Positions 8,584 to 45,900 of a DNA stretch of 64,000 nucleotides are shown here, piece after piece (position 1 is the first letter of the stretch; each line of letters opens with the position of its first letter). Position numbers and translations under genes: made by a program. Source of the DNA: Takakia lepidozioides (taxonomy: Eukaryota; Plantae; Bryophyta); assembly GCA_030704615.1 (NCBI GenBank), contig CM060732.1, positions 54,622,001 to 54,686,000 of the forward strand, written 5' to 3'. The notes under the pieces are model-generated. The model had not been told where the DNA came from. It made no database searches and was given only the letters and a program-made list of their open reading frames with translations.

Positions 8584-9426
8584 CTAGTACTCTGGAACCA
8601 GTTGTGAAATCTTGCCCTCTTCAGCAGCAAGGCGCTGCTCTGTAACTCTTAACCATATGCACACAGCTGTGAAGCTCAAAAACAAGCTAAGCATTCCACT
8701 ACCCAAGCCTATTCCCACAATTGCAGCTACGCTTAGGGCATGGGGCTTGCTGGCTGTCACACTCAGAGGGTAGCCAGACAAGCCTCTGTTCCCTTGAAAT
8801 GAGCTAGCATTGAATCGAGGGCCACCACTCGAAGTATTTGATAGGCTTGAGGGAATTATACCAGAGAGGTCATTGTTTGAAACATCAAAACTTTGCAGGG
8901 TTGCCAGTGAACCAAGGTCAGCCGGAATCTGGCCTGTCAGCTTGTTGTTGTGAAGATCTAGAGTATGAAGGTATTTGCAGTTGCCAAATCCAACTGGAAT
9001 TCCCCCTCCCAGGTCATTGAGCGAAAAATTTAGGGTCACAAGATTCTGAAGCTGGACCAACTCAGATGGGATATTCCCAGACAGCTGATTGGAAGAGAGA
9101 TCCAGTGTGGTCAAGTGCCCACATGTTGATAGATTTGATGAGATTGACCCACTAAGCCCAGAATTGCTCATGACAATACCAATGACCCTGCCGCTGCTAC
9201 AAGTGACCCCTGTGGTAAAATTGCTGTTGCATGGAAAACCTGTCGCAGTCCAGTTGGTCAGCAAAGAGTTTGTGCTGTACTTCAGGTCCGCTTTGAATCC
9301 TTGGAGGCATGCGAGGTCGTCGTCATTGTTGGTCTGGCTGCGTGCACCCCCAAGAATGATGGAACCTAACAACATAAGCGTGGCCCACGCTCGAAACCTC
9401 GGACATACCCAGGCTTCCACACTCAT
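8584..9426 (-). CDS. RLP44: LRR receptor-like protein, RLP44/RLP57-like (signal peptide, N-cap, ~4 LRRs, TM, short cytoplasmic tail)
   Basis: 280-aa ORF with a signal peptide, DDLACLQG...NW...C...GVTC cap, plant LRRs ([13 protein letters not shown]), [12 protein letters not shown]-cap, [15 protein letters not shown] and tail [13 protein letters not shown] typical of RLP44. There is a probable 5'-UTR intron at ~9533-10091. Confidence 0.85.
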
Positions 9427-14835: not shown

Positions 14836-15558
14836 CTCCATGGTGGTTATTTTTGCCATCAGTGTGACTCTTTTTACTATTTAATTTGAGTAAAAGGGCC
14901 GCTGTCCCCTTTCCTTCAAAAACAAAATCCAAATAAAATCTCCACCGTGAGGGCCTCTGCCAACCCCAGTTTATAAGAACAAAAATGCTAATAGTTTAAT
15001 TTATTTTTATTTTTTATTTTTAGGTCTTTTCAAAGAACAGGGGGATTGACGGTAGCCCTGGGATCATAGTTTCCTACAGTGAGTAAATTTATAGTTTCAG
15101 AAGTATAATACAATTTTAAGGCGAAGGGGATCGCCAACGAGAACTCCTCGTTCGGATGCCAAACAGATGAGGATGAATATCATGCGTCATTCCTACAAGC
15201 TGAAACTGAGGTGTGCCACGTGGAACCACCTCGGACTGATGGATGGATGACCAACTTGGAAGTTTTGTAGATGATCGGTTGCTGTGGGTGGGATGATGAA
15301 TTCAAATAATCGCGCGCTCTTTCTGCTGCCTTGCAAGTTTGAGAGACAAGACAGAAATGTGGAGTGTGTGTGTGGGTGCAGCCTTGCTTGCTGTTTCTGA
15401 GCTGCTCGTCGATTCTCAAGGGAGCGAAGGGGAAGGAGAGAGAGAGATAGAGGGGTTGTACTACTGAATTCCTTGCAGAGAGAGGTCTAGGGTTGAGAGA
15501 TTGATGCAGAGAGAGGGGGGGAGGACCAATTGAGGGAGGTAAGGGTTAGAGAGCAAGT

Positions 15559-16569
15559 ATGGAGGAGGCGCAGGAGGAGGCATTTGTGGAGGAGGAGCAG
15601 CAGCATCATGGGCCTTACATGGTGGACCAGCTGCAGTCATGTGGGATAGCCGCAGCGGATATCAAGAAGCTGAAGGAGGCAGGGTACTGTACCGTGGAGG
15701 CAGTTGCGTACTCTGCGAAGAAGGACCTGGTGACGATCAAAGGCATCAGTGAGGCGAAGGTTGATAAGCTTACGGAAGCTGCGACGAAGCTGGTGCCCAT
15801 GGGCTTCACAAGTGCCAAACAGATGCATGAGCAGCGGGCAGAGATCATTCAAATTTCTACAGGATCCAAGGAACTCGACAAGATTCTTGAGGGGGGCGTT
15901 GAAACGGGATCCATCACTGAAATCTATGGGGAATATAGGACCGGAAAGAGCCAGTTGTGCCATACGATGTGTGTCACTTGCCAACTGCCTCTTGACCAGG
16001 GAGGTGGTGAAGGAAAAGCTCTGTACATTGATGCAGAAGGCACCTTCAGACCACAGAGGCTGATACAAATTGCGGAAAGGTATGGATTGAATGGAAGTGA
16101 TGTCCTGGACAATGTCGCATATGCTCGTGCCTACAACACGGATCATCAATCAAAGCTTCTGATGGAGGCAGCATCCATGATGGCGGACACGAGGTTTGCG
16201 TTGATGGTGATAGATAGTGCTACTGCTCTGTATCGCACTGATTACTCAGGCCGGGGTGAGTTGTCTGCCAGGCAAGTGCATCTTGGACGGTTTCTAAGAA
16301 GCCTCCAGAAACTGGCAGATGAATTTGGGGTGGCAGTTGTAGTGACAAATCAGGTGGTGGCACAAGTTGACGGAGGAGCAGTTTTTGCTGGTCCTCAGGT
16401 CAAGCCTATTGGCGGCAACATAATGGCTCATGCTTCAACGACCAGGTTGTCTTTACGGAAGGGGCGTGGCGAGGAGCGGATCTGCAAGGTGGTGTCCTCT
16501 CCCTGCCTGGCTGAGCAGGAGGCACGATTCCAAATCGCTCCTGAGGGTGTCACTGATGTGAAAGACTAG
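15559..16569 (+). CDS. RAD51: DNA recombinase RAD51, intronless
   Basis: 336-aa ORF with [10 protein letters not shown] (FxxA), Walker [16 protein letters not shown] Walker [16 protein letters not shown] and [13 protein letters not shown]. Confidence 0.97.
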
Positions 16570-17982: not shown

Positions 17983-18981
17983 TCAAGGCCAGGCATGGGT
18001 ATAAAATCCTCTAGCTCGCAGTTCAGCAAACAGGTGGGTGGCATCCTCAAGTGTGCGATTAAACTTGTTCCAACCGAAAACAGTCATTCTGGGGTGGTGG
18101 TAGTGGATCTCCACAAACAACTCATCAATAATATCTGCCATGGTAGGGTCTTGGATCCACCTCTCGAGAATTGGCCATTCAAATCCCTCTATGTCCATCT
18201 TCACCACAACGGTGTCAGCTGCCGTAAGCTTCAATTCCTGTTTGATGAAGCGCGTTATGTTGATGGTCGTGGTAGCCATGTCATCGAAGTCGGAGACACG
18301 GCTGTAGTAAATCTTTATGACATCAAGCATACCCTGTGGAACACTTGCTTGCTCTTTCACTCGGGTTGGGTCTTCATCCTCAAAACTCCAGTTCATGTCT
18401 TCCTGAAGTCCGGCATTCGGTATTCTCAGCAAAGATTTATCCATTTCAAATGCGTGGACCTCCGTGAAGTCGCAGGGATACATTCTCTGAAACCATTGTA
18501 TGCTTGTTTGAAAAGCATTTGCTCCGAGATCCAAGTAAACGCGACGATTTCTTTTATTAAGATTGATCTTGCTCCCTAGGAGCCATGGCAGAAGATGAGT
18601 TCTGTCTTCATAGTCCGTAGCAAACCTAAGGCTGTAACCTCTTCGAAAGTTGTTGAAAGAATCCAGGCTCTCAATCAGTTGCCCCTTCACTCTACACAAG
18701 GCCGGCTGCCCAATCCACTTCATCTGATTCCACGCACTCCAAGTCATTTCTGGTGACTGCAAAGCTGCATCCGGAAGGTGTCCCTCCACAGAGGTACAGA
18801 TGAAAACATTCTCTTCTGACCCAGGCATGCTGTGTAACTTTGCCCGAGGCCACTTAGAGCCGAAGAAATTTGAGGATGTATCCAAACCAATGTAGCTGGC
18901 GAGAATGAAAATAATGAAGTACAGTAGCCAATGAGGTGTTTCACGGGCGGCGAGAATCGTGCGGAGGGTCGTAATTGCCAT
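17983..18981 (-). CDS. Membrane-anchored FkbM-family (Methyltransf_21-like) SAM-dependent methyltransferase, intronless CDS
   Basis: N-terminal TM (WLLYFIIFILASYIGL), VYLDLGAN, EVHAFE, VVVKMDIEGFEW and IDELFVEIH motifs. The first ATG is at 18981. Confidence 0.75.
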   Translation of the reverse strand: MAITTLRTILAARETPHWLLYFIIFILASYIGLDTSSNFFGSKWPRAKLHSMPGSEENVFICTSVEGHLPDAALQSPEMTWSAWNQMKWIGQPALCRVKGQLIESLDSFNNFRRGYSLRFATDYEDRTHLLPWLLGSKINLNKRNRRVYLDLGANAFQTSIQWFQRMYPCDFTEVHAFEMDKSLLRIPNAGLQEDMNWSFEDEDPTRVKEQASVPQGMLDVIKIYYSRVSDFDDMATTTINITRFIKQELKLTAADTVVVKMDIEGFEWPILERWIQDPTMADIIDELFVEIHYHHPRMTVFGWNKFNRTLEDATHLFAELRARGFYTHAWP

Positions 18982-19970
18982 CGCAGCGCACACCAATGTA
19001 GTTACTCTAAGGTTGAATGAATCCCAATCCTCCAGGACACGATTCCTCCTTGATTTCTCTTTGCTTCATAGTAATTATGGCTGTCCCATATGCAGCTGCC
19101 TTAGATCCACATGTCTAAGCAGCTCTTTCCTCCCGCTCAATCGACCATACAGGATTGTCTTGCAACTGCGGCCCAGGAGAACTTCGATATGTACTTTTGC
19201 AAGTCCATAATAAGCACATCACATGGCACATAGAGTACTTCGACTCCACTGCTACGCTCACTTCTCCACTCAGAACCCGTTGAAACATACCTAACCCTTA
19301 AGATCAATAGTCACGTCAACTGAAGATTGATAGACCAGTAGTGGGCAGAACTCGGATTTTTCATGATTAGCGCCGATGTGCAGTAACATAATTTGATGGA
19401 TACATGTGCTCCTCAGCACCCCGGTACTTGAAACTATGTCCCACTTGTAGGAAGCCATCTCTGAAGGCAGTTGAACCTGCTCCAGCCTAAATCGTCGCTC
19501 TTGAGGAACACTGCTTGCAGTCACGTTGCGTGCGAAGATGAAAGCGAAGAGACAGAAACGTGCGAGAAAATGCAGACGTAGCAAAGAAGGAGAGAGACAA
19601 CCTAACTGACCTGGATGGATGCACACATCTCACGTGGATGGATGAATCTTAAATGTCGTGCCTTGTTTTACCATTCAAGTGCGGCTCATACTGGATGAAC
19701 TGGATGAACGCTTACTCATCCAGGTGATGGTACCTCTGAAGCTTAGGTCATGGTCAAGAGATGAACGACTGTGCGTCTCTCTGTGTGTGCACGTGTGGTT
19801 GACTGGCTGCAATCTGTCCAAATGGATGTAGATGTATGATGGATGGAATCACCTTACTTGAGTTGGATGGATGAAGATGACGTGTCTGACGCGCCGTTCT
19901 GGAGAGAGGGACGTGTCGCTGCACGCGCATTTTGCCGCGTGATAGTGGATGAGGGCTACGAAAACTCAGA

Positions 19971-27330: not shown

Positions 27331-28077
27331 AAAGGGGACGGACTGGCCTGTGAAGCACGATTCCGGCGCCAGGGGGTTATTCCCCTTCCTCTACCGGTTT
27401 GGCTTAGTAACGTAGGGATGTAGTCTTGTAAGCAGGCTTGCCAAGAAGATGGAATCTCACGTAGAGGACTCAATAAACTCACACATCCACTGGCCTCTCA
27501 TTCATGCAGACACTCAAGCACTCAAGCCACGCTACGCCACGCCCATACACTATTGAGATGAAAATCCACCACCCGGTTTGCCACGACATTCCAGTTTAAT
27601 AGTATTTTAGGCGTAATCTAATCTTAAGGCCAAATGGCGCATACATATACGTCAGCCAGATGTCGTTCCAGCATAACCATAGAGAGAAGCCACATCATCC
27701 AGTTCCATCCTAATCTGATTCTAAACTAGCTGTTAGAATAAGGCAGATCTATATTTAACCCTAAGCTGTGTCCAGCTCATCCTCATTACATAAAGCGTAA
27801 GTTCATCCAAGCTACATCCTACATCCGTTCGTCCAGGCAGAATAATCAGGTGAGGAGGAATCCCATCTCCACAAGCCCTTTTACTCAAATTGATAAAACT
27901 AAAAGAGTCACAATTGGTGGAAAAAATAACTACCATGGAGGCCATCGTGCTTATTATGGGTGAACTTCCCATGTCCATAGCAAACTAGCTACAAAAATTC
28001 TACCTAAAATGGAGTGAGAAGTAGAAGTGAGAAGAAGTAGGATGTTGCAAAGTTTACTGCACTGCCACTGAACAGAG

Positions 28078-28498
28078 TGTCATGGTTTTAGTCATGGTTA
28101 TCTAGAATTACCTACTTCTAGTTAACTAGGACATTTTAGATATTTATATTTATATTTTGTGTGTTGGGACTTCATTTGGTCTCACATGCCAAGTGAGGTG
28201 TCGAGCCTCACTTGAGACATGGAGATAGGTTTTCCCCTTGTGAGTGTTGAGGAGGCTCATCTTCTTGTAGTTGAGCCTCCATGAGCTTCTCTCACCTCCA
28301 TAGCTCTAGGTATTGAGAGGGAGTGTGTTGAGGGCTTTGTAGGGTGGATTCCTTTAGCAAAGGTGCCCTTGGCTTGACTTAGTTTATGTGATAGAGTGGA
28401 GTTCACTTGGAAGGACTAAGGCTTGTTCTTCATGTGATTGCTTCATGCTTTGAGAGCTTTCATTGTCTTCTACTTCTCTCATTTTTCATCTCTTATCA
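28078..28498 (+). repeat. Terminal repeat 'B', 5' copy (421 bp, TG...CA)
   Basis: Matches 38586-39006 with ~9 substitutions counted by eye and no indels (~98%). Confidence 0.95.
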
Positions 28499-28510
28499 CT
28501 ACAAGAAGAT
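28498..28510 (+). promoter_or_regulatory. Putative self-priming PBS (ACTACAAGAAGAT)
   Basis: It sits at the 3' edge of the 5' repeat and is the perfect reverse complement of 28259-28271 (ATCTTCTTGTAGT) inside the repeat. No TGG-starting tRNA PBS is present at this position. Confidence 0.6.
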
Positions 28511-29815
28511 CACCTTATGCTTGTGAGTGCGGAGTGTAAGGATTAGTTTTGCACTTGTATTTTAAAGAGGTTGAGAGCTAGGAGAATTTAGCTTTTGTAT
28601 CACAAGGCTTGCAAGGGGTTGCAAGGAAAGGTGCTCGAGTATTGCATGCACCAAGGAGTTGGAGAGCTTGAGAAGAAAGCTCTTGAGTCACAAGATTTTG
28701 CAAGGATTGTAAGGAGGAAGTCTTGTGTGTGTGTGGAAGCATGGATTCTAGGGTTTGAGAATCCTTTGTATGCATTATGGAGTCGATGGTGTGCGCCATG
28801 GCTTGTGGAGAGTGACTAAAGGCTTGTTAGTGCTCATTTCACTATCAAGCTAGGGTTAAGCAAGTTCAAAGTGTGGATGTTGTGGAAGAGAAGCCAAGGA
28901 GCTATATATGCTTGGGTTTGAAGACAACAAGGGCAAGCACTTGGAGAGCACTAAGAAGCTCAAGAGGTTTTGAAAGGGAGCATGTGAAGAAATCTTCCAA
29001 TTATGGTGGTGTGGAACCAAGCTTAGGGTGCCATATTGGAAGGGCTTGGAGAACATGTGGTGGGAAAACCTTGAAGGGAAATCATCATTCAATGTATGCA
29101 TAGCTTCACCCTAACTATGTAATGTGACAAGAGGGGGAGGCAATACTTGGCTATTCATGCTCTTGGTAGTGCGAGCTTTGTGGTGGATAGTTGACCAAGC
29201 AAGTGGTGCATGTGTGGAGCATGCTCGCTTGAGTTTGTAAGTTCAAGTTTGAGAAGGGGAGCTCTTGAACTAGCAAGAGGTGAAGGCCTTTGATATCCAT
29301 TTGTGTGTGAAGTGGAGAGGTGTTGATTCATGTTATGATAAAGGAGAGCAACACATAGGCCAAGAGGTCATGAAACATGCATTCAAATGACCACGGGGAG
29401 CACATGGATGATGGATTGGTGCAAGACCCCAAATGAGGCATATGGCGTGAGAGTGGGATCCAAGGCGGATTGCTTGGGAGCATTATTGTAAGTGACAAGC
29501 ATTGCTCCTACACATTGAGATAATTTGTGTTGATTTGGAGCAATTGTCAAGTGATGAGGAGACAAATGCATGATTGCTCGGCAATGGAGATATGGTAGTT
29601 TGCAATCAAATCCCAAGGACTAAAAGGGGGATTGATTTGGTGGACAATGACTTGCAAGTTGAGTTGGACCACTCTTGGTTGCACATTGGGGTGGAAGAGA
29701 GCAAGAAGATGTCTCTTATGACCACCTAGAGACCATATTTTTGCTTGAGTAGAAGCATAGAAGTCAAGGACTTGCATTCTAGCTCTTCATTACAAACCCT
29801 AGTAGTGTATGCTCA

Positions 29816-30205
29816 GACTATACCTCTGTTAGTATACCAAACAAGAGCTTGTCCCTTTGACTATACCTATGTTGAGGTATCACCATATGTGAACCCTAAT
29901 GTGAGACTATACCTCTGTTAGTATACCAAACAAGAGCTTGTCCATTTTACTATACCTCTATTGAGGTATCACCATATGTGAACCCTAATCAGCCAGACTA
30001 TACCTCTGTTAGTATACCAAACAGGAGCTTGTCCCTTTTACTATACCTTTGTTGAGGTATCACCATATGTGGACCCTAATCAGCTCAGACTATACCTCTG
30101 TTAGTATACCAAACAGAACCCTCATTTTCAGACTATACCTCTGTAAAGGTATCATCAACATAAGGGACCCTAGCAACCTCAAACTTTACCTCTGTTAAGG
30201 TATCA
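29816..30205 (+). repeat. Tandem array (~89-92-bp unit, ~3.5 copies plus partial motifs) in the retroelement leader
   Basis: GACTATACCTCTGTTAGTATACCAAAC starts at 29816, 29905, 29996 and 30088. Each full unit also has an ATACCT-N6-AGGTAT inverted motif. Confidence 0.9.
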
Positions 30206-31172
30206 ACAGTGAAAGGACTTAAGTGAAATTTAAGGGCCTTTGGAGGATTGTTTGGAAGATATTTGAGGGCCCTTGGAGGAGTATTTGGAGGATCTTTGGG
30301 GTCCTTGGAGGACCCTTCGAGGAGCTTTGGTGGACAATGTTGAAGAGCTCTTGAAGGATTGATTGAGGGATATTGAAGGATACTTGCCACGGCCATACAA
30401 GCGAGTGGATAGAGACAGGAGGGAGAGTGGTGGGATGAGAGCATTCTGGGGTTAGGAATTGCTTTAGTTTCTCTTCTCCATAGTCTTTCACCCTCTCTGT
30501 AGGCCAAAAACTTTCCGTAGGTGGAGGCAAGAGTCAGTCCGGGTTTGGGCTGGGGTGTCATTGCAAGAGCGACACTGTGGAGTGTTTTTGGTGTGGGGGA
30601 GTTGCTGTCTTGATTTTCTTGTGTTTGGATCCCCTCCACACCTGCATGCTTGACTGTGTGTCATGTTAGCTTTGTGTGGGCGCTTGTTTTCATAGGAGGT
30701 TGGTCCGGATTTGATCACCGGCCAATCCTAGAGTATGCTGTCAGTGGTGAGGTTGGAGTGATGACCAGCAAGACCACCAGTGTTTCTTCTATGGTGAGGC
30801 TGGGTTGATGACCAGCAGACCATAGGAGTGCTTGCGGTGGATGCAGGTGCAGGTACAGGTCTACGTTAGAAACCTATTATTCCTGCTTGAACCAGTAGCC
30901 GCAACAAGTTCTTTACCCGGTTACCTTGTAGAAAGTGGGGATTAGAGACAGGTTGACAACCGGTTGGGTTGTGAGTTTTCATCACGGAGGTGCCACCAGC
31001 TGCTGAGGGGAGTGCCGGTACAAGCACCAGCGATACTAGTGGATACACAAGACAAGGTGTGCGGTTTAGGCCACTTTCACCTTCAATGTCTTCTGAGGAA
31101 GGTTCAGACTCGGAGTCAAGAGGATTCTCGCCGAGGGTGCAAGTCATTTCCGTGCCATTGTTGTGGGACACG

Positions 31173-33500
31173 ATGGAGGAGATGTATGGAGCTACCAAGG
31201 GGCCACGTAGGTACTCTGGAGCTGTGGGCACCATCGAGCTTGATGACTTTATACAAGAGTTTGACAGTTGGTGTGATTTGCAACAAATGCGCAATCCACA
31301 ACTGTTTACGCCCTTTATAGGAAGGGGCTATTCCAGCACCTTGAGGGGCCGCCCATGGATGATTACCATGAATTTTGGCGGAGACATGCGGTGAAGAATG
31401 AGGAGTGGCGAGAGTATTGGTCACCTAACTATGTCTCAATCACTAGAGGCACAAGGGCAGCGGTGACACCAACAGCTACACAAACATCTCCAACTACAAG
31501 CACTAGTAGTGGAACAAGTAGTGCCGGCACTTCTGCAAGTGGTACCAGTTCAAAAGGTGCTACTACTTCTCCTACCACAATTACAACACATGTGCCTAGA
31601 TTCAACCTGGTGGTGGAGTTCTTCCAGGAGTTGTGGAGGAACTACCAAGGTATACGGACAGAGAAGCTGCGAAGTTTGCAAGACTTCCAGCGCAAATCCA
31701 GTGAGAGCTTGCGAGAGGCCTACACTCGTATGAGGCGCTTGATAAGTGTGACCCAAGGGGTTACTGAAGCTCAGGCAGTCCAGTTCTGGTATGGAATTTT
31801 GGACAAGGAGCTCAAGAGAAGGGTGCGGGATGCAACCCTGTTACAAGCGGCCCAACCCACATTAGCGGATGTGTTTCTGCTGGCTGAGCGGATTGAGCTC
31901 AACATGGTGGAGGAGCGAGTTGTTACCATTGGATTTGGCAAGGACATGCCTGCACGAGGTGCAGCTGCCAGCCAATAGGTACAAGGGACTGCCCAACAGC
32001 GTGGTCAGGGGGACAAGGTTGCCCAACCCAAGTTCCATGGAGCTTACAGGGGACCTCAGCTGCAGAGGCCCATGGCATCTTTTGCAGGCCAACAGCAACC
32101 AGGGGTGATATGTTGGACATGTGGAGGACCCCATGTCAAGAGAGATTGCCCAGAGAGTGGCAGAAGGCCGGCACAAGCACAGCCTGCACAGTTGCAGTGT
32201 GGGCATTGTGGTAAGTATGGGCATGGAGATGCCCAGTGTTATGACTTGTACCCTGAGTTGCGCCCAGGCCAGTTCCAAGGGAACAATGGTGGTCGGGGGC
32301 GAGGTGGACCAGCCCAGAGAGGACAAGGTGGTCGGGCACAAGGTGCAAGCCAAGGGCAAGCTCAACATGGCCAAGGACGCGGAGGTCAGGGTGTTGACCA
32401 ATACATGGCCAACCGGCTTCAGCAGCTAGAGCAGAGGCTCGCTGCCATGGCTACAGCTCAAGTGGTATCGGCTCCCAGGCGGGATGGTCCACCTCCTGCT
32501 CCTGAGGGAGGAGATATGGGAGGCATGGGATTCATGTGCGGAGCAGCACTACCACTAGTGCAGGTGGAGTCTGCTACAGCCGTGAATCGAGGAGCAGCAC
32601 GAGTTCCTAAGCCACGAGGTGCAAAGGTGGAATTGGATCCACAGCGTGGGGAGGCAAGCCGTCAGGCGAGGCTTCCTCAGTCATTCACATTGGCGGAGAC
32701 AGTGTCGACGCCATCCATGGCACCTAGTTCTCGCCCGACTGTTACCGAGGCGGAGGTTACTATGCCATTGGGGAGAGCTACACGTGCAGCACTGACACCT
32801 GCTACCAAGGCTAGTGCAGCCGGTGTGTTATTGGGGGCAGCCACCTCTGTGTGTCATGCCCCACTGTTCTCGGCAACCATGATTGCGACGCCGGGGGTAA
32901 GACCAGCTGCAGTGTTCAGACTAGCAGCAACACTCTGCGAGAGTGGGGAGGTCACTTCATCTTCTGCGGAGTTACTGGAAGGTGTAGTGGCAGAGGGATC
33001 CTCGGATTTGAGGGTCAAGACTGCCACGGCTGCGCCATGGCAAGCTGCAGCTGCCAGGTCGACGGAGCTGCCAGCTAGGCCAGCCTTTGAGTGCGCCATG
33101 GTGACACCTGGAGTTGTCTTGTTAGACAACCAAGGAGGCATTTTCACAGGCAAGAAGTACCGGCCATTGCGGGTCTTGTTGGACTCAGGAGCTCAGCCAC
33201 TGATGTTGGGCAGAGCTGCTATTGCAGGTTTGGGCCTCATGGAGGCGGATATGGAGCCTTGTCCTTTCCAGATACAGACATCTTTGGGAGGATCAGAGCA
33301 GGCTCGGGGCATAACACGGCGTGAGTTGGCCATTGGACTACAACCAGATCATCCTGTATATGGCTCAGTGATGCGAGCCAAGGCCATTGTGACAGACGCG
33401 GTCTCTTACGATGTCCTTGTTGGTGGGGCAGTGTTATATCCCATGGGTTTCATCCTGGACTTTTGGGAGGAGTCAGCATCCTACAGGCCTGGATGGCAGT
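31173..33500 (+). pseudogene. Retrotransposon gag (capsid-like, two CCHC zinc knuckles) and aspartic protease, disrupted
   Basis: Gag-like ELDDFIQEFDSWC and LQDFQRKSSESLREAYTRMRRL. In-frame TAG at 31976. Knuckles CWTCGGPHVKRDC and CGHCGKYGHGDAQC. Protease RVLLDSGAQ (~33170) with YDVLVG. Confidence 0.85.
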
Positions 33501-33889
33501 CAGGGGATGGTCGTCGTGCACAGCTCCCTGTGACATTCATTGGGGGTATTGCGGCTGCACAGCGGGGCAAGCTGCCAACACTAGCCGCCTTTACAGCTGC
33601 AGTTAGTTGGCCTGGAAAGTTGCTGGAAGGCAATGCCGATGCAGAGGATGTGCCACCTCCAGCAGAGCAGGATGACATGCATGGTACGGCGGAGTTGTCT
33701 GCCATGGTTGCTCACACTCCATTATGGGGTACGAGCAAGGATTTGCAGCAGGCTGCTGATGGACGGGTACAACAAGCCTGGGTAGAGGCCTTCGTACCGT
33801 CAGGAGAAGAGGAGAGTGCGGTGATTGCACCAGGACCACCTCAGTTGTCGTCATTGGACACCACACCTCTTGTGTGGCAGTGCCCGGAT

Positions 33890-34830
33890 GAAGGCATATG
33901 CCTTCTGGACTTGTTTGGCGGGATCAGCACTGGATTGGCTGCAGTACTGCAGGCAGGTGTACGAGTTCGACGTTACCTGTATGTGGAGAGGGATGAGACT
34001 GCACGACGCGTCTCACTGCGCCATGTTGCTCAGTTGGTACAGCAGTACCCTGATTTGTTGCCAGTGTCTGCAGTTCGTGGATACCAACAAGCCTTGCCAG
34101 CAGACATTTCGTTGCTGGGGGCGCAGGATTTGGAGCGGGTTAGCTCCATTGATTTAGTAGTGGCAGGTTGGCCCTGCCAAGGGCATTCATCAGCCGGGCA
34201 TGACAATGGATTGCGAGACTCGAAGACGGGTCTGTTTTGGGAGATGGTGCGGATTTTGCGCCACTTGCAGCTTCATCAAGCTGTATCTCCAGCATACATC
34301 TTGGAGAATGTGCCACTGATGGGTGATTCTCGGGCGGGTGATGGCCAGTGTGCATCAAGTCCAGTCGTGGCTTGGGTCAGCAGTGTTGCTGGATGCAGCT
34401 GCAGTGGGGTCATGGGCTCATCGTCCACGGCTATGGTGGACTAACTTGATGTCACACCACACTGCTCAAGCGTGCATTTGATGGGGTGCAGCGGCCAGCA
34501 CACCTCACAGTGGATAGCATTTTGGACACAGGAGGCAGTTCAACGTGTGAGACACGATGACCGTTCGCCTTTGGCAGTGGTCAACAGGGTGGGTCAACCA
34601 CGAGCAACATTACCTACACTGCTCAGCTTCCCAGGATCCCATGCTTTTCGGGATGGTGGACCTGGCCTCTTGTGGGATAGCCAGTTGCAACAATTAGTGG
34701 AGCCCAATGCTGACGAGCGCGAGCGGGCGATGGATTTTACCACAGGTACCATCTCTTTCTGAGGCATCACGTCGTCAGGTGTTGGGGCAAGCAATGGATC
34801 TCAATTGCTTGACCTGGATTATCAGCTTGG
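33890..34830 (+). pseudogene. DNMT3-like DNA (cytosine-5) methyltransferase domain within the retrotransposon polyprotein (frameshifted)
   Basis: Motif I LDLFGGI, II YVERD, III ADI, IV AGWPCQGHS (~34163-34189), VI YILENV. After a frameshift come VIII LDAAAVGSWAHRPRLWWTNL (~34389-34448), IX ERERAMDF and X RRQVLGQAM. Confidence 0.92.
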
Positions 34831-35258
34831 CTATGGCTGAGCAGCGCAGAGTACGGAGTACACTTCCCTTCATGGTCTCCCTGCCTACCGAGACGGTACA
34901 GGCAGCGAGTGGGGGCGAGCAGGTGAGGACCACGAGGTGCAGGCCGCATCCATGGCACACGTGGGAGGTGCTCGAGGTTCAGAAGGAGTTGGCAGCCAAG
35001 GCGGCGGTGATGGATCAGGTTGGGGATTTTTCTCGGATTGAGGAGGTCCTCAAGGATGGGATGATGGGGCAGGATGAGACATTGTCACTGACAGAGGAGG
35101 CAGTGGTCACTGCTCAAGAGGTTGCAGCATAGCAACCACGGGACGCGTCTTCTACCTCTAAGCCTGCTGGACTCAAGGTTGCAGTCACGGAGGACAACTG
35201 GGAGCCTGATGTTGGACCTATAGTCACCGGAGGAGAGAGACGACGTATACGGCGGTTC

Positions 35259-38249
35259 TTGAGGGCTTACAGGAACTGCTTTGCCTTCAGTTTGAAGGGT
35301 CAAGAGATTCGCATTGAATTGGCTACTGACACGCCAATCTTTCGGAGACCCTATAGATACAGTGACATGGAGAGGTCCTTGATTCAGATGAGAACTCAGG
35401 ACCTTTGGGAGGCTGGTTTGGTGGAGCTATCTAGGGGAGAGTATGCTTCAGCCACAGTGATGCCAGCCAAGAAGGATGTCTTTGGCAATTGGACGGAGAG
35501 ACGTATGTGCGGTGATTACCGGCCTGTAAATCGTCAGACCAAGTCCGATAGGTATGCCATGCCAACACCAGAGGAGATCTTTGATGCCATTGGGCATGCC
35601 AAGGTCTTTAGCACGTTGGATTTACGATCCGGATATAACCAGTTGCCGATCAAGGAGGCGGATAAGCAAAAGACGACATTCTGGGGGATCAATGAGCATG
35701 GGAAGGATTGCCTATACCAGTGGCGGTTCTTACCATTTGGGCTTAAGAACGCTCCGGCAGAGTTTCAGAGAGTCATGGACAGGATTCTAGCAGGGGTGGA
35801 GTTTTCTCGGTGCTACATAGATGACATCATCATCTTTAGTGCTACAGTGGAAAAGCATGAGAGACACCTTCAGGGGGTATTTGAGCGCTTGAGGGCGCAC
35901 GGATTGAAGTTACATCCGGGAAAGTGCAAGTTTTTCCACAACCAGATTGAGTATCTGGGTCACATGATATATCCTGGAGGATTGGGGGTACAGCAGACTA
36001 AGGTAGAGTCCATTGCACAGGTTCCATGCCCCACGGATGTGAGCCGAGTTCGAGCTTTCATGGGATTAACAAACTATTATAGACGGTTTGTTAAGGGATT
36101 TAGTGCCATTGCAAAGGCTCTAACCAAGCTAACCAAGGTGGACCAGGAGTGGCAGTGGGAAGATGAGCAAGAACAAGCTTTTCAAGAGCTCAAGGCGAGG
36201 TTGACCTCGGCGCCCATCTTGAGACGACCTATCAGGGGGCGTCCTTTTCAGCTGCATACAGATTGGAGCATGCTGGGGCTTGGAGCGGTGCTCACACAGG
36301 TGGATGATGAGGGAAGAGAGTTCATAGTGGCTTATGCTAGCCGCTCGAACAACGTTGCAGAGTCTAAGTATAGCTCATATGAGGAAGAATGCTTAGCTGC
36401 AGTGTGGGCCGTGGCACACTTCAGGTGCTATCTATACGGCAATCTCTTCACCCTTGTCACGGATCACCAACCACTCAAGTGGTTGATGGAGTCAGACAAG
36501 CTTACGGGGAAGCTTGCACGGTGGGCACTCATCCTTCAAGAGTATGACTTTTAGGTGGTGCATCGACCGGGTTTGGTCAATCGCAATGCAGATGGGTTGA
36601 GTCGCAATCCATGCACGAGCCAGCAGGATGACACTGGAGCTCGGTGGCATGGTAAGACGGACGAGGAGATGGTGCCCGGATGGCATGCATCTGCATTTCT
36701 GTGTATCTTGGCAGCGGAAGACCAAGTTGGACCTGCAACAGGGATGACTGTAGATCAAGTGTCTGAGGACCGTGAGGCCAGCAATGAGCAAGGTGGCGCT
36801 AAAGATATACATGAGGATTCAGTTGTGTTGGACTACCTCCGCACTGGAGACACTGCAGCCACTGTGACTGCCAAGGAGAGGGATCGGATCCTACAACGAG
36901 CCAAGAGGTTCAAGTGGGAGGGGACACACCTGCTCCGAGTGTGGGAGGATGGTCGAGTGAGGATTGTGCCTCACCCAACACAGCGGGCATGGTTAGTGCG
37001 GCATGCCCATGAGGAGTTGGGGTATTTTGGGGTGCAACGCACTCATAGTCTACTGCAGGGGCAGTATTGGTGGCGTGGTATGCACACAGAGGTGCAACAA
37101 TTTGTGGCTAGGTGCATGGTGTGTGACAAGGTGCGTGCTTCATTCAACGCCCCTACTCCACAATTGTACCCTCTTCCGATCATGGGATTGGGCTACAGGT
37201 GGAGTCTTGACTTCGCAGGGCCGTTGCCACTGACCATGCGCCACAACAAGTACATGTTGGTGATGGTGGAGCACTTCTCCAAGTGGATTGAATTGGTTCC
37301 ATTGCCTGATAAGGCTAGTGAGGGAGCTGCGTATGCATTCTTGGATTGTGTGCTTAGCCGATTCGGTGCTCCAGCTGAGGTACTCACGGACCAAGGGAGA
37401 GAGTTCTTGGGGGAGTTTCAGGCTTTGTGTGACAAGGCCTTGATAGACCACCGCACCACTTCTCGGGATCATCCTGAGGCCGATGGCTTTGCAGAGAGAG
37501 TTGTTCAGACAGTAAAGAGGGGTTTGCGCAAGTATGGCTTGCAGAAGGGACACCTAGGAGATTGGGACCTTCAGTTACCCTGGTTAGCCATGGGCTATAG
37601 GTTCAGCAAGCAAGCATCACTTGCCTCCTTCTCACTATACTTTCTTCTCTTTGGCCGAGAGCCGGATTTGCCTACATCCATTCGCAGAGAAACTGCTACA
37701 GTTCTTAACCTTGTCGATCCGGACGTGTGGGCACGTGCATGTGAGCAGCGTGCAGAGTTGTTCAAGAAAGTCATGCCCGTGGCTTTCGAGAACCTTGCCA
37801 TTGCACAACATCGTGATACGTTGAGGTATGCTACCATACGTGGTGGGGGCTATCGTCCTGGGGTTCGGAGATTCAACCCTGGTGACTATGTTTATCTGCA
37901 GCAGACTGCTCCTACGACCTTGGATGTGACTGTAGGACATACTATTTTGAGGGTTCGAGAGGTGTTGCCCTCAGGAGTCCTGATCTTGGAGGGTCGGGAT
38001 GGCATGATTTGGAAGGACCATGTGCGTAATTGCGCGCCAAGTCACCTTCCAAATATTGATGGAAGGGTTGACCCAAACCTGGCAGTGGTACCTGCAAATT
38101 TGAGGTGCATGTTGTGTGGGTCTGCTAGAGGGGCAGCCACCATGCTGGTGTGTGATCAATGCTCTAGAGGTTGGCATATGGGATGCTTGACTCCACCTCT
38201 TGAGATGGTTCCTGATGGGGATTGGTTATGTCCGCATTGCATTGGATAG
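35259..38249 (+). pseudogene. Pol: reverse transcriptase, RNase H, DDE integrase, C-terminal PHD finger (one in-frame TAG at 36552)
   Basis: RMCGDYRPVN, LPFGLKNAP and YIDDII (RT). FQLHTDWS and TDHQPL (RNase H). SLDF, TDQGREF and AER (integrase DDE). PHD CMLC...CDQC...WHMGC...WLCPHC at 38106-38240. Confidence 0.95.
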
Positions 38250-38506
38250 TGGGAGTGGATACAACCATGGAAGGCTAACAAGAAATGCAAGGCCAAGCTA
38301 CTAGGAGACCAACACACGAGATCCTGACTCAAGTTCACAGATTGCAAGACGGCAACTAACGATGGGGTTGCTCTTGTACCCGGCCTCTTGGTCTATAGAG
38401 TTTGAGTACAATAGGGACAGTGATAGAGGACTTAGTACGGCTGTGGCTATTACATCTTGTAGCTATCTGGAGTTAGAGGGACCTAACCACCAGCTAGGGG
38501 GGCGAT

Positions 38507-39092
38507 TGTGGTATAGGATTGTGTGCTTAGATTGTGTGGTGGACAACGATGTATATTGTGGCACGATGCTTAGGTGCACGACAGCTGTCATGGTTTTAGT
38601 CATGGTTATCTAGAATTACCTACTTCTAGTTAACTAAGACATTTTAGATATTTATATTTATATTTTGTGTGTTGGGACTTCATTTGGTCTCACATGCCAA
38701 GTGAGGTGTCGAGCCTCACTTGAGACATGGAGATAGGTTTTCCCCTTGCGAGTGTTGAGGAGGCTCATCTTCTTGTAGTTGAGCCTCCATGAGCTTCTCT
38801 CACCTCCATAGCTCTAGGTATTGAGAGGGAGTGTGTTGAGGGCTTTGTAGGGTGGATTCCTTTAGCAAATGTGCCCTTGGCTTGACTTAGTTTATGTGAT
38901 AGAGTGGATTTCACTTGGAAGGACTAGGGATTATTCTTCATGTGATTGCTTCATGTTTTGAGAGCTTTCATTGTCTTCTACTTCTCTCATTTCTCATCTC
39001 TTATCATTGTGGTATAGCTTTTTAGGATTGTGTGCTTAGATTGTGTGGTGGACAGCGATGTATGTTGTGGCACGATGCTTAGGTGCACGACA
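38507..39092 (+). repeat. 3' repeat block A(38507-38583)-GC-B(38586-39006)-T-A'(39008-39092)
   Basis: A and A' (TGTGGTATAG...GGTGCACGACA) differ by an 8-bp indel and 2 transitions. A is directly preceded by the PPT AGGGGGG plus CGAT. The A/B junction is the palindrome GACAGCTGTC. Confidence 0.93.
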
Positions 39093-39363
39093 AGAGAACT
39101 ACCGAACTGCCTAAGCCTAAGGGAAACTGAGATGTTGCCAGATGAAGAGGCCAGAACAAGAACAAACATTCCATAGCTAGAATCTCAGCTGGGCTTCTGA
39201 ACTTGGTGTCGAGAGCCTTCTTGTGACGTCAGATGAAGTCTTTATCCTCCCCCTCACCAGGAGACTTCCCAAGTAGTGGGGATGGTGCTTTGCCATTGAG
39301 TAAACGCACGATGGGAAGACATGTGCTGAGTATGTTATTTTTGCCCCAAGACTACTGAAAATC

Positions 39364-39615: not shown

Positions 39616-40519
39616 GGAGGGTGGGGAGGGGTAAAGGCAGACTACACTGACTCAAAAGCGGCAGATGTGCCCTCCACTGAAAGTCCATGAGAAAAAATTA
39701 ATTAAAGATATTTGTTCAAATATATTTTTATCTTCATATGTAATGGTATACTAATCATATTTAGTAAATGGTCTCATCCCAAATATTTGAGATATTTTTT
39801 ATTTTATATATATATATATTCTTATTTAGAAATAATAGCTACTTATTATTATCTTGTAGTTTATGAAATTTGTCCATATAACAATAAGCTCCTAGAGACA
39901 ATAACAATATATATATTCTTAGCAAAGATCTCCACCCAAATATGAATTTTTCAAAATGTTATGGACAAATCGTCATTTTGCGGGTTTTTTTGGTACAAAA
40001 GAGTGCATAGTGTCTTGATGGATGGATAGAATTGTTCACAAATTTATATTTGTGTCTATTCAAACATTGTAACACTATTTTAATTAAGTCTGGACTTTTG
40101 GCTTAAATCCGGACTAAACTTAATATATATTTGCATTAAAATGAATTGAAATATTAATAATATCATGGTGTAATGTGTGATTGAACTTTGTGAAATTTCA
40201 GGTGATGTCATACTTGTTTCAAAATGTGTCATATAAGAGGTCCATTTGACATTGAAGTGCTCAATGTGAAGTAGCAGTATTGAACAATTCATTGAACGTC
40301 CACTTGGAAGTCGAATAAAGTAATATTGCATTGCAGGATCACGATAAACAAATGGGTGCATCGAACATGGGCCAGACTCCTACTCTACCATACTCTATAC
40401 AACTTGCTAGTAATTTTATTGATTGAATCTTCATATGAAGCACAATGTTCACATACCACCCCATTGGAATGAATCATGTTTTGGATGTGACAAGGGCAGT
40501 AAAATATTAGAATAGCATG

Positions 40520-42170
40520 AAACATTCGGAAGAGGTACTAGGGTAGTACAATAAGGTTTGGGGTGTAACTAGAGAGAAGTGTAATAAGGTTTGGGTTTAC
40601 AGTAAGGGTAAGGATTTAGGGTACAAAAAGACAAACAAATATGATGGACTCACACTCGGTAGAATTAAGAAATGGTTGAGGAATTTGATATCCCTGTAAT
40701 CATTCTATCATACATTATCCAACAAAAGAAAATATTAAAAGAGCATGAAACATTGAGAAGAGGTAACATGGTAGTACAATAAGGTTTGGAGTGTAACTAG
40801 GGTAGTACACTAAAGTTATTGGTATATGGTAAGATTAATGGTTTAGGGGTGATGGTAAAGGTAGGGTTTTCGGTTTGGGTTTAAGAACACTATTGGACAA
40901 ACAAATATGGAAAACTCACAGTCGCTAGAACTTGGTGTGTGTTAGTAGGATAAAAAATAAATAAATAAATGGAGAAACAAATATTATAGAAGAGTCATTG
41001 GGCCGAAGAAGTATTTAGATTGAGGATTCGTCCTTGGAACCTGGTATTAAAATACATATGGTTATGGTATGGATACTTCATTCCCATTTGCAGGGGAAGG
41101 GTAAGGGTTTAGACGTAACAATGGCGTAGGGTTTTGTTTAGGGTTCCCGACAAGGGTTTAGGGTTTGGGTTGAAGGCAGAAATGGTGAGCATACATGGCG
41201 GAAGACTCGCACTCACTACAACTTAGTGTTGTAGTAAGGTAGTGCTAAGCAAAATAAAAATGAAGAACCTAATATTATGGAAGTGTAGTCATTGCATCGG
41301 ACAAGTATTTAAATGAAAGACTCGTCCTTGGAACCTGGTATTAAGATACATAGAAAGCAAAGTTCGATAAAAAAATGTAAGTGCATGTCAATCCAAACCG
41401 AAGGCAAAACCTTGTGCAAGGTGAAGGGCGAAGAGATTTGAATAACCATAAATAGTTATGGTTATGGTATGGATACTTCATTCCTATTTGCAGGGGAAGG
41501 GTAAGGGTTTAGACGTAACAATGGCGTAGGGTTTTGCTTCGGGTTCTTGACGAGGGTTTAGGGCTTGGGTTGAAGGTAGAAATGGTGAGCATACATGCCG
41601 GAAGACTCGCACTCGCTACAACTTAGTGTGTTAGTAGGGTACATAATGAAAATTTGGATATATTGAAGAGATTTGGATAACCAAAATGGTTATGGTTATG
41701 GTATGGATAGTTGATTCCCATTTGCAAAGGGAAAGGAAAGGATTCTGGGGTATTGGGTTAAGGGTAAATGTTTAGGGTTTTATAGTAAGGGTTTAGGGTA
41801 AGGGTATAGGATTTTTGTTTAAGTTACTAAATAGACAAACACTTATGGAAAACTCCAGACTTCGTTAGAACTTAGTGTTGTTAGTAGGGTACTAGTAAGC
41901 AAACAAAAAATGAATAACCTAATATTATGGACAAGTATTTAAATGAAAGACTCGTCGTTGGAACCTGGACCTATTAAGATGTAACATAGAAAGCAAACTG
42001 TAACATGCCTAAATGCATGTCAGTCCAAAACAAAGGAAAAAGCTAGCGCAAATGTAAAGGGAGAAGACATTTCAATAACCATAATGGTTATGGTTTTGGC
42101 TATGGTTATGATATGAATAGTTCATGGGCCATTTGCAGAAAAGGGTAAAGGTTAGGGGGAATGCTAACAT
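40520..42170 (+). repeat. Mosaic subterminal direct repeats with GGGTTTAG/GGGTAAG motifs
   Basis: A ~180-bp block starting ATGGTTATGGTATGGATACTTCATTCC occurs at 41058 and 41458, with weaker copies at ~41692 and ~42100. TCGTCCTTGGAACCTGG occurs at ~41028 and ~41322, with a variant at ~41952. Confidence 0.8.
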
Positions 42171-42952: not shown

Positions 42953-45900
42953 TTAAATCGAAATACTGGAGTTGACCTCAACAATATGTCCTTGGTCTAG
43001 AACTCGCTTGCACGACTCATTTTTTGACTGATGATTAGCCTCCTCCAAATTAGCGCGCGCCTTCACTGCTTCGGCGGCAGTAATTCTCTTAGTGCTATTC
43101 CGTGTCGTATTTTTTCGTGGAAGCATTGTCCACACAACATTGTTCATGTGGATCCATTGAGGAGGATCTGACGAGTTATACTCCCAAAATTTTGACCAAC
43201 AGTCCCTGTACCTTTCCAAGTCTGTTAGGTTACCACCTTTTCTCGATCTCCACCACTCCACCTTCACCTTCTTAAAATTAGGATCCTCCCTTTCGCGGAT
43301 CACGTCAGATATTGCCACCCCCCATCCAGACCGGGCACGTACTTGGGTCATGAGGGCGAACAAGCACAAAAAACCCTTTCTCAATATCCTTGAACGGATT
43401 TAAGGATATTCTTGGTCGCTCCCACCTCGGGCCACAGTAAGGTTCTAGGATTTCATCCTCTTCTTCCACATCTGGCACTATATGTGGATGGATTCCATCT
43501 CTGAGATGATTGTTGGACCAATTTGTTTTCGGCTAGAATCCCTCAAGAAGATAAATACGCTCGAGAGCTTCTGGAATTGGCTTATCCAGCTCGGCGAGAA
43601 TGTTTCCCCAGTACTGGTCGTATTGTTCCATTCGACATTCCTGTATTTTTTTATTCTATTCTTAATGAATGACTGTTTTTCGGAGGAGTCGTCCCCGACT
43701 CCCCAGTTAGGTCTCCTTGGAACGACGTCTGGGTCTCCTTCAGGGAGCTTGGGAGTCCCGTCAAGATTGGACTTCCACATCTTCACGCTATAGTTTGTTG
43801 GAAGCCAATCCGAATCAGTAGCAGACTTCTTGTACTTCATGACGGGCCAACCCTCCGCATCCTTAAAAAAGCGGAAGACGTGCATCTCCGAAATCCCGAC
43901 CAACGCCTCCTTTCCATCCAGAATACAGCCCTTGACAAAATTCTTGAAGTCGGGAACCTCCTGAATAATCTGTGGAATGAACTGCAGATCTTGCAAGGTC
44001 ATAAAAGACCTCATCAAATCCGAAAGAATATAGGTGATTCGTTCCTTTAGCTTCTTCAAAAGGTAGCTGAAGAACCCGTCGATGTCCTCATGGGTGTGTC
44101 CGACCATTATGAACCCTAGCTGGATTTTTTCACAAACATCTTTGGCGGTCAGGAGGGATAGAAAAACAATCATCCATCTGTTCTTATTGTCCTTCGCGGA
44201 GTTGTCCATTTGCAAGTACAGTCTTCTCGGAAGTGGACGAGCACCACGTTTGTCTTCCGGCCTGCAGGGTTTAAGAGCATCCAAACATCTCGATTTACCA
44301 CTTAAAAGTGATTCGAAAAACTCGTTTTGAAGTCGGTAATCGAAAATGTTCCTAGACTCGCGACAGGTTGGCTTCTCCAGTTGGTGCAGGCAACGTGCCA
44401 AAGAACCAATTGTAAAGTTTGAATTTCATTTCCAGAACTCAAGAGAATACTGACCGTAAGCTCCATCACCGTGTCCGTGCGTGACCATTCCCGTTAGTGA
44501 AATTGGAAGCTGACTCAATCCAGAAATCATCTTGTTTGAAGTCTGGAGTCTTGGAACAGCTGTTTTCCTATTATCCATTTTGTCGTGAATAATACAGAGA
44601 AACTCTTCCGGAATCATAACAAACTCATTCCTCTAGCTATGGTACAATCTCCTGCACGACTCTTGGTGCCTCAAATGTTTATCAAGCGCTCGTTTGTGTG
44701 TCACCTGTTCCGCACTTCTCTTAACAAACTTTCTGATCGGATCCTTTAACATCTCACACTCCGTGTACTTCGCAAATGTGCTCCCAGTTTTACGAACCTC
44801 CACGTTAGGAAATATCCGACTCCGGATGTGGCTAACAGCCGACTGCGAGACTCTTTCCAACCCGAAAAGTTTGTTGGTCTATTACAATAAGGCAGGGTCA
44901 GGAAAGGAACGTCCACTGGACAGTGGAGGTTCATGAAACTAGAACCAAAGTCGAAAGAGACAAAATCGAAGGGAGGATCATCCACATTGAATCAGAAAAA
45001 ACTTCCAAGAAAGAAATTGAAGAATGGAGATTTCATACCTCGTTGGACTCGTCTCGTATTCGCTTCCAGTTCATTTCAGGTGGTAAGACTCTCAAAATAT
45101 CTCTCTTTCCCTCCCCAATGCATCTTGTCTTATGGGGCATGAGGTCAATATTTCCGTTGATAATGGACATAATGTTACCCTCTGCTTGAAGCGTCCGTGG
45201 GCGTGGCCTCTTCACTCCACGGTTCTCATGGAGACTTGACAAACCAACCCTGTTTACTCAACTTTTTGTACTCCATGTATGTGGACCTGCCAATTCCATG
45301 AATTGTCCACCAAGCAGTCTCACAAACATCTACACCCTCAATCGTAACGTATGCCCTGCGAGAGGTCCCTTCCAGCATGTGAAGTCGTTTTGAAACATTT
45401 AGTCCATGTTCTTTCCTCTCATCGAAAGTGGATCCCCAAAACGAAGTACGGATAGCCAAGATTTTTCGCCAATCGAAATATTGACAGCAGTAAAGTCTGC
45501 AGCAAGGTTTGCTACTTATGGACCGGACTTCTTCCAGAGTAAGATTCTTCATTCTTTTTTTGGAATGCTCCAAATCTCGATCCCTCTTCTTCCTCGTAAA
45601 ATGCCGATACGTCGCTTTCTTCACACCTGCCTCGTGATCTTCGTACAAGATACTGTTAGAAGATCTAATAAAATTCTCCAGATCATTTGAGAGTAGTCTC
45701 CCACTTTCCAAAAGTCGTGTTTTTATTAAAGGCCATTTTACAAGAGACATCAAAGATCCAGATCCTCCAGAAAGTATTTTGGTGACAAGAACTCCAACAT
45801 TGTCCTCTCCCAGTTTGTCATTGAGGATCACCTCGTCCGGATTGCAGGTTTGAATCCTCCCCTCGAACAATGCACCCCCATCATCACCCAAACAGTACGC

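Follow-up and report, generated by a model that had tools for sequence, protein, structure and literature searches.

The closest described system to the element analyzed here is KnitGypsy-Dnmt3 of Klebsormidium nitens, in which a Gypsy-borne DNMT3 is combined with DIRS-like repeats (de Mendoza et al. 2018, PMC5890265), and it is the Klebsormidium precedent that a preliminary description of our locus had cited. Its activity in yeast was negative, a result called inconclusive by its authors, and we found no mechanism for the DIRS-like repeats in the published account of this element (PMC5890265). SymbioDIRS-Dnmt3 of Symbiodinium is reported in the same source to methylate CG de novo in yeast. 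Where later papers touch on the subject, they cite only a "streptophyte Gypsy-DNMT3" (bioRxiv 10.64898/2026.05.21.726589; PMC12344493). With respect to priming, Tcn1-type chromoviruses are described as present in non-seed plants (PMC6317226; bioRxiv 10.1101/2022.12.06.519325), and with respect to integration, foamy-virus integrase is described as cleaving the palindromic LTR-LTR junction of circular cDNA (PMC1180852).

The window, by which we mean the whole stretch of 64,000 nucleotides of Takakia lepidozioides DNA that was analyzed, holds at positions 28078-39092 one decayed member of a Ty3/Gypsy family present in high copy number, with the order gag-protease-DNMT3-RT-RNase H-integrase-PHD (Table 1). 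Compared by published description, this element and KnitGypsy-Dnmt3 have in common the Gypsy domain set, A-coding-B-A-B repeats, purifying selection, and a DNMT3 domain that is intronless, unrearranged, and situated in the polyprotein region (PMC5890265). They differ in that the DNMT of KnitGypsy-Dnmt3 shares an open reading frame with RT according to its authors, whereas a conserved stop lies between the two in the window's clade; in that the capture was ascribed to the K. nitens lineage (PMC5890265), whereas relatives are found here in Mesostigma, Closterium, bryophytes, and, with a second layout, Scenedesmus; and in that the window family occurs in land plants at very high copy. With SymbioDIRS-Dnmt3, which carries its DNMT3 in Pol, the element shares a DNMT3 domain and the A-coding-B-A-B repeats, but SymbioDIRS-Dnmt3 uses a tyrosine recombinase (PMC5890265), in contrast to the DDE integrase, protease, and 4-bp target duplications of the window element. 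Likened by layout, it resembles Tf1/sushi and the plant Tcn1 chromoviruses in being a Ty3/Gypsy element with predicted self-priming from the transcript 5' end (PMC6317226; bioRxiv 10.1101/2022.12.06.519325); Tf1 and Tcn1, however, have a chromodomain and ordinary LTR ends in place of the PHD finger, DNMT3 domain, and permuted ends seen here. The concept of a Gypsy-borne DNMT3 is already published, and the conserved stop and the permuted-LTR reading go beyond what is described in PMC5890265. In the mainly open-access literature searched, we found no account of a Gypsy-borne DNMT3 in land plants, of its read-through stop, or of a permuted-LTR mechanism.

Table 1. Features of the methyltransferase-bearing element and its flanking duplications in the window.
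Feature	Position	Strand	Basis
Target-site duplication, left copy AGAG	28074..28077	+	identical to 39093-39096
Repeat A1, left element end, TG...CA	28078..28498	+	412/421 identical to A2
Predicted self-primer, likely transcript 5' end	28259..28270	+	exact complement of the primer-binding site, 12 nt
Predicted primer-binding site, self-priming Tf1-like type, abutting A1 on its 3' side	28499..28510	+	complementarity
Four tandem ~90-nt repeats in the long 5' leader	29815..30176	+	repeat family D2
gag	30975..33103	+	homology to intact relatives; Retrotrans_gag E 0.008, below cut-off
Aspartic protease, LLDSGA at 33176-33193 (DSG motif)	33104..33523	+	weak Pfam match and homology to relatives
DNMT3-like cytosine-C5 methyltransferase, motifs I-X, four frame breaks	33893..34835	+	Pfam, motifs, profile, fold
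Conserved in-frame stop, CARYYA context TAG CAA CCA, predicted read-through site between Gag-PR-DNMT and Pol	35130..35138	+	comparison of copies
Reverse transcriptase (YIDD at 35814) and RNase H, Ty3-type	35313..36551	+	Pfam; PDB profile
DDE integrase	36840..37814	+	D 37209, D 37389, and E 37494 all present
PHD finger at the integrase C-terminus	38106..38240	+	Pfam PHD E 2.9e-10
Polypurine tract AGGGGGGCGA, abutting B1 on its 5' side	38496..38505	+	same G-run ahead of B1 in relatives
Repeat B1, U3 side, where the true LTR is predicted to start	38506..38583	+	repeat comparison
Palindromic B1/A2 junction GACA-GC-TGTC, predicted integrase attachment site	38580..38589	.	sequence
Repeat A2, two bases after B1	38586..39006	+	repeat comparison; 9/421 sites differ from A1
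Repeat B2, right element end ...CACGACA	39007..39092	+	repeat comparison; diverse flanks beyond 39092 in the same organism
Target-site duplication, right copy AGAG	39093..39096	+	matches left copy

The assignment to Ty3/Gypsy is borne out by gene order, a Ty3-type RT, and a DDE integrase (Pfam and PDB profiles), with RT proper at 35313-35987 finding its best PDB matches in Ty3 RT (E 6e-69). A Pfam scan of the element returned no tyrosine recombinase domain, the rve integrase and the target duplication being present instead, and at the integrase C-terminus it returned the PHD finger and no chromodomain. Within gag, a capsid-like part (~31616-31783) and two zinc knuckles (32093-32263) are recognizable. 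This copy of gag is broken by one frameshift and one stop, the DNMT frame is broken near 34335, 34456, 34539, and 34750, and RNase H is likewise broken, so that this copy is dead. Since contigs of other copies from the same organism are unbroken at the first three of these DNMT sites, the breaks reflect decay of this copy. In run X1, from the same organism, 87,060 contigs match the element, and the DNMT is covered to about the same depth as RT (summed depth being no measure of copy number). Separately, homogeneous loose ends just past the polypurine tract (38510-38513 in window coordinates; runs X1, X5, and X8) show that subfamilies with a different B repeat exist in the same organism.

The identity of the enzyme emerges from sequence and structure comparison together. 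Pfam PF00145, the profile proposed as a check in the preliminary description, matches the window DNMT with an E value of 3.5e-12 and 46.8 bits against a cut-off of 22. The motifs (I, LFGGI at 33911; II, YVERD at 33980; IV, WPCQG at 34169; VI, LENVP at 34301; VIII, AHRPRLWWTNL at 34416-34448; IX, DERERAM at 34712; X, QAMDLN at 34788) follow in linear, unrearranged order, unlike those of DRM, and include the catalytic PCQ, ENV, and the motif VIII arginines. The same description had put motifs I-IV, VI, and VIII-X upstream of RT and in frame with gag-protease; the place is right, but only motifs I-VI share that frame, in an 821-aa open reading frame (31979-34444) together with the zinc knuckles and protease, while the frame breaks throw motifs VIII and X into another frame. 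Its reading of motif VIII as DNMT3-like agrees with the profile search, Foldseek, and structural alignment. A profile built from 32 relatives retrieved DNMT3A from the PDB (E 3e-24) ahead of DRM (3e-15) and HhaI (3e-8). An AlphaFold model of the naturally intact relative P0162 (74% identical; pLDDT 90.5) found only DNMT3 chains among the Foldseek matches listed, and its VIA alignment gave a Z of 28.2 for DNMT3B (rmsd 2.6 over 279 residues), compared with 24.9 for M.MpeI and 21.9 for HhaI. On the basis of these alignments and this model, the window enzyme is placed with DNMT3, nearer than to DRM, DNMT1, DNMT2, DNMT5, or bacterial enzymes.

The domain is at the same time only ~22% identical to DNMT3A. 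It shares fold and catalytic motifs with host DNMT3, as exemplified by animal DNMT3A/B and plant DNMT3-DUF3444 (PMC6453930), but is without PWWP, ADD, and DUF3444, carries extra residues, and has a changed target-recognition loop. DUF3444 was absent from the Pfam scan of the window element, and no intron gaps were seen in the alignment to relatives. In the column matched by eye to the CpG-reading arginine of DNMT3A, which we take to be R836, 32 of 44 rows have Tyr, Phe, or Thr and 6 of 44 have Arg; a CG specificity is therefore not assured.

The domain is a regular component of a widespread family. Relatives form 413 clusters at 50% identity (E<=1e-10), and among 202 proteins with the domain, 44 show the order protease-DNMT-RT and 34 the order RNaseH-DNMT-integrase, the remaining 124 being uninformative as to order. 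The first layout has bryophyte members in Marchantia, Calypogeia, and Sphagnum (50-76% identity), in keeping with the land-plant-like genome proposed in the preliminary description, and algal members in Closterium and Mesostigma; the named member of the second layout is Scenedesmus. The same gene order recurs, where flanks allow it to be read, in most of 80 metagenome loci, which were chosen by the presence of the DNMT and so form a DNMT-bearing comparison set. Among the named matches and the 30 clusters inspected there was no K. nitens protein, and Atlas searches returned generic family names only. A phage or viral origin was also considered and rejected: a viral scan gave only phage-type enzymes (25-48%), which are placed outside the element clade, and viral contigs searched for the integrase yielded a single weak match.

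Several variants of the family deserve mention in their own right. The Marchantia protein P0197, counted among the 34 of the second layout, is a deletion form; like L025, it retains protease, DNMT, and PHD without RT and RNase H. P0056 and P0118 are polyproteins that combine a related cytosine methyltransferase with a Dam adenine methyltransferase, P0118 also with RT, and their cytosine enzymes branch apart from the Gypsy-borne ones in the DNMT tree; in the dual-methylase EpiLTRs, which may be compared with them, the DNMT is described as DNMT4-related (bioRxiv 10.64898/2026.05.21.726589). In P0106 and P0124, related DNMT domains stand alongside a Copia-type RT (RVT_2), which may reflect chimeric gene models or a further capture.

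Phylogenetic analysis used proteins spanning both domains, with six near-duplicates removed, and for the DNMT took in element-borne and phage-type enzymes only. In the RT tree (35 rows, a quick tree) one branch separates the two layouts with an SH-aLRT of 100. In the DNMT tree (61 rows) the RNaseH-DNMT-integrase group forms one clade (100), and the window groups with bryophyte sequences (100) and then with the outer clade that also neighbors it in the RT tree; taken together, the protease-DNMT-RT sequences do not resolve as a single clade. The agreement of the two trees shows that DNMT and RT descend jointly in the window's clade.

Purifying selection on the DNMT resembles that on the protease. 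From 81 sequences, 67 distinct copies were retained (98.5% cut). Median dN/dS between the window and 63 relatives, three distant copies being left apart, is 0.12 for DNMT, 0.13 for protease, 0.08 for RT, 0.06 for RNase H, 0.10 for integrase, and 0.30 for PHD, ratios that are rough on account of saturated dS in comparisons with the window and of a codon filter favoring well-aligned positions. Between lineages, the DNMT ratio is 0.11-0.12, below a Ka/Ks of 0.2, with dS near saturation (L073 versus L074: dN 0.138, dS 1.23). Neutral evolution of the domain, which the preliminary description had named as a possible refutation, is not what these values indicate. The catalytic Cys is present in 66 of 66 distinct copies and in all 45 deep rows, as is the Asn of ENV in 45/45, and each motif VIII Arg is found in 40 of 41. 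An open frame across the domain persists in only 5 of 53 copies, the other 48 being broken, which is not surprising for old genomic copies.

The stop between DNMT and RT gives an indication of how the enzyme is made. In 36 copies with the DNMT end and RT in one frame, a stop is found at the homologous place in 35, at one codon in 32 of them and seven codons off in three from a distant clade, which rules out mere decay as the origin of the stop at 35130. The codon after it is CAA or CAG (CAR). The full CARYYA context occurs in the window and in L029, L032, L073, L074, and L076, and peat-moss-type copies mostly have CAA CCC, one base off, with TAA as the stop in at least 12 of them; several algal-type relatives (P0048, P0217, P0219, and P0224) are without a stop. 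CARYYA is described as stimulating read-through in plant viruses (PMC4132726). The sequences suggest that the abundant product is likely Gag-protease-DNMT and that Pol needs read-through, and from the position of the stop the enzyme is likely made at capsid level. The preliminary description, in which neither this stop nor the split terminal repeats figure, had the DNMT built into the retrotransposon polyprotein. This holds for its union with the Gag-protease frame; a conserved, leaky-type stop, however, precedes RT-RNaseH-integrase-PHD, so that DNMT does not share an uninterrupted open reading frame with RT and RNase H and, being in the same frame, would join them only via read-through.

The ends of the element are equally unusual for a Gypsy element, in that they are not two equal LTRs with a polypurine tract before the right one. 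Instead, the order is A-coding-B-A-B in the window and in L038, L062, L067, and L080, with the polypurine tract preceding B1 and not A2 and the G-run placed likewise in relatives. TG...CA ends with a 4-bp target duplication are present in 9 of 11 copies having both ends, and B stands ahead of A1 in none of 24 loci with an A1. Among the loose-end rows listed for run X1, at least 18 contigs carry unrelated flanking sequence ahead of 38586, and at least 30 carry it beyond 39092. Five copies, L023, L029, L039, L040, and L044, have A-genes-B only, with a target duplication (four exact, one near); these could be one-LTR-circle insertions, products of B1-B2 recombination, or assembly collapses.

Repeat A1 likely holds promoter, R, and U5. 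The 12-nt complement between A1 and the predicted primer-binding site was reached by none of 300 shuffles, and among 24 A1 copies, 15 have a complement of at least 9 nt (at a second site in three cases; three locus pairs are duplicates). In relatives the sequence of the primer-binding site differs while its pairing with A is kept, and a TATA-like box lies ~30 bases upstream of the self-primer site. The self-priming helix appears in both MFE and centroid folds, which are overall no stabler than shuffles (z -0.73, with a fold start chosen by the analyst). A tRNA-primed site was considered and self-priming preferred, since B begins with the TGGTA that follows A2 and the window contains no tRNA gene.

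With a primer-binding site after A1 and a polypurine tract before B1, ordinary reverse transcription would yield a cDNA with B+A at both ends. A-coding-B-A-B is then predicted to be a circular permutation of this cDNA, in which A2/B2 is the joint of its ends. The element termini are the two halves of the palindrome GACA-GC-TGTC that survives at B1/A2, and the form CA-NN-TG was found in all eight intact junctions examined, including those of the distant L073 and L074, with GC, AT, AC, GT, or TC as spacer. It is therefore likely, to judge from the repeats, that the integrase opens end-joined cDNA inside the LTR, the intermediate being either a closed circle or a template-switch product. The proposed model and foamy virus would have in common that a DDE integrase cuts circular cDNA at a palindromic CA..TG junction; they would differ in the origin of that junction, which in foamy virus arises from the true cDNA ends (PMC1180852) but in this element lies within the LTR as an encoded palindrome, the joint of the true ends remaining intact in the insert.

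Base composition gives a mixed picture. A1 contains 1 CG and 0 CWG against 17.6 and 10.3 expected, and in 16 related A repeats these sites are about half as rich as expected. Such poverty would spare the promoter from methylation, and ordinary long-term deamination explains it too. Extra CpG loss as a footprint of self-methylation was not seen in the coding region (0.44-0.56, compared with 0.49-0.54 in the flanks). Decay among related copies (CG 0.22, CHG 0.26, CHH 0.08) follows host CG/CHG marks, and host silencing alone would explain it.

It can be hypothesized from these comparisons that the DNMT is produced and packaged at the level of the capsid protein and acts on the element's own freshly made double-stranded cDNA, methylating it ahead of insertion, a reading to which we assign a probability of about 0.5. 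Read-through of the UAG would give a minority Gag-PR-DNMT-Pol product, and the protease would free the DNMT inside the particle. The preliminary description had likewise proposed that the protease would release the enzyme and that it could methylate the cDNA or the insertion site. Self-priming at the primer-binding site and priming at the polypurine tract would then produce an ordinary cDNA with B+A LTRs, whose ends would be joined (A2/B2), and the integrase would open the palindromic B/A junction inside the LTR and insert there. Methylation of the cDNA by the DNMT could mark the new copy like host heterochromatic DNA or shield it while it is extrachromosomal, and the CG/CWG-poor A repeat would keep the promoter usable. 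Methylation of cDNA appears the most likely role in view of the catalytic conservation, the predicted travel with Gag, and the activity of DIRS-borne DNMT3s on CG. Against it stand the lack of CpG loss in the coding region, a decay that follows host marks, the frequent replacement of the putative CpG-reading Arg, and the silence of KnitGypsy-Dnmt3 in yeast. By our estimate, a Ty3-sized shell may be too small for a 1,400-residue Gag precursor at full capsid number, and much of the enzyme could therefore act outside particles.

The PHD finger may add to this scheme. Its closest PDB fingers are those of CHD4, PHF12, KDM5A/B, ATXR5, and PHF21A, which we take to be readers of unmodified H3 tails, and by eye it lacks the aromatic-cage Trp; judged by this resemblance, it would suit targeting away from promoters. 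More tentatively, and with limited confidence, the whole may be envisaged as an old Gypsy lineage of green plants, reaching from Mesostigma to bryophytes and having a sister layout in chlorophytes, with a replication cycle of which we found no description in the literature searched and in which a read-through-controlled, capsid-level DNMT3 would methylate end-joined circular cDNA in the particle, the DDE integrase would insert it via the LTR-buried palindrome, and methylation together with the PHD finger would decide which junction is cut and where the element lands.

The enzyme might instead be active mainly in trans in the nucleus, methylating resident copies or other DNA and limiting copy number or competitors. 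A brake on transposition was raised as a possibility by de Mendoza et al. (PMC5890265), the stop puts the DNMT in the abundant frame, beyond the need of one cDNA, and the internal B/A junction is intact in every full genomic copy. We nevertheless regard such a role as rather unlikely, given that the family reached very high copy number (the 87,060 contigs of run X1), that its own promoter repeat is almost without CG and CWG, and that the domain resides inside a particle-forming precursor.

A further possibility, which we consider unlikely, is that methylation serves integration by marking or shielding one B/A junction, in end-joined cDNA or in the genome, so as to steer the integrase and prevent self-cutting. 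It would account for the fact that only A-coding-B(-A-B) is seen, with B before A1 in 0/24, though a two-LTR circle has two equal junctions. CG and CAG/CTG sites in the junction (ACGACA-GC-TGTCA) are moreover kept in distant clades, but the varying spacer removes the CAG/CTG site in some copies, variants that may themselves be decay. DIRS elements with the same repeat layout are reported to have captured methyltransferases as well (PMC5890265); the comparison loci here are all DNMT-bearing, with no DNMT-less sister family among them.

It is improbable that the domain serves some task other than DNA methyl transfer, either by binding DNA or RNA or by acting as a decoy for host DNMT3. The divergent target-recognition loop and the inactivity of the Klebsormidium relative in yeast (PMC5890265) would fit such a function, yet the Cys is retained in 45/45 rows, ENV and the motif VIII Arg are near-invariant in both layouts, and the DNMT3 fold is complete in the model of P0162. 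That a host DNMT3 piece was captured in a one-off or neutral event, or that the domain comes from a nested insertion or a misassembly, as the four breaks in the window copy and the 48 broken among 53 related genomic copies might suggest, is scarcely credible, because the domain occupies the same position in dozens of loci from several genera with low dN/dS and congruent trees, and shows neither intron gaps nor a match to DUF3444, whereas host plant DNMT3 is described as carrying DUF3444 (PMC6453930). With this last alternative falls the refuting outcome of a one-off capture that the preliminary description had anticipated, and methylation of the element's own cDNA stays our preferred reading.

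Outside the element, the window contains an intronless full-length RAD51 open reading frame (15550-16569, + strand; Pfam Rad51 E 7.5e-130). An intronless RAD51 is a moss feature, and this one represents that feature or a retrocopy. Taken with the nearest named relatives of the element, it suggests a bryophyte host. On the minus strand are an intronless class-V aminotransferase or cysteine-desulfurase-like open reading frame of 481 aa (60651-62096), the N-terminus of an LRR protein with LRRNT_2 (8584-9450), an FkbM-type methyltransferase with DUF7870 (17983-19065), and a DUF7869 open reading frame (43478-44425; E 5.6e-34) that is probably a transposase fragment and adjoins degenerate repeats at 40500-42150. 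Two inverted repeat pairs (20243-20484/27043-27299 and 11-400/5394-5794), 88-93% complementary and 5-7 kb apart, may be inverted duplications or the ends of DNA transposons.

Plants rely chiefly on DNA methylation to defend themselves against transposons, yet this transposon family has retained a DNMT3-type, predicted de novo methyltransferase of its own among streptophytes, including land plants, in which the family is abundant. The permuted ends suggest that end-joined cDNA, generally regarded as a dead end, can be the normal substrate of a DDE integrase; they suggest as well that LTR finders built around two equal ends may misplace the boundaries of such elements. DNMT3 gene counts in bryophyte annotations can include element-borne copies; several NCBI gene models encountered here are element fragments. 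The Marchantia relatives, finally, bring the question raised in 2018, of what use a retrotransposon has for a DNMT, into a genetically tractable plant.
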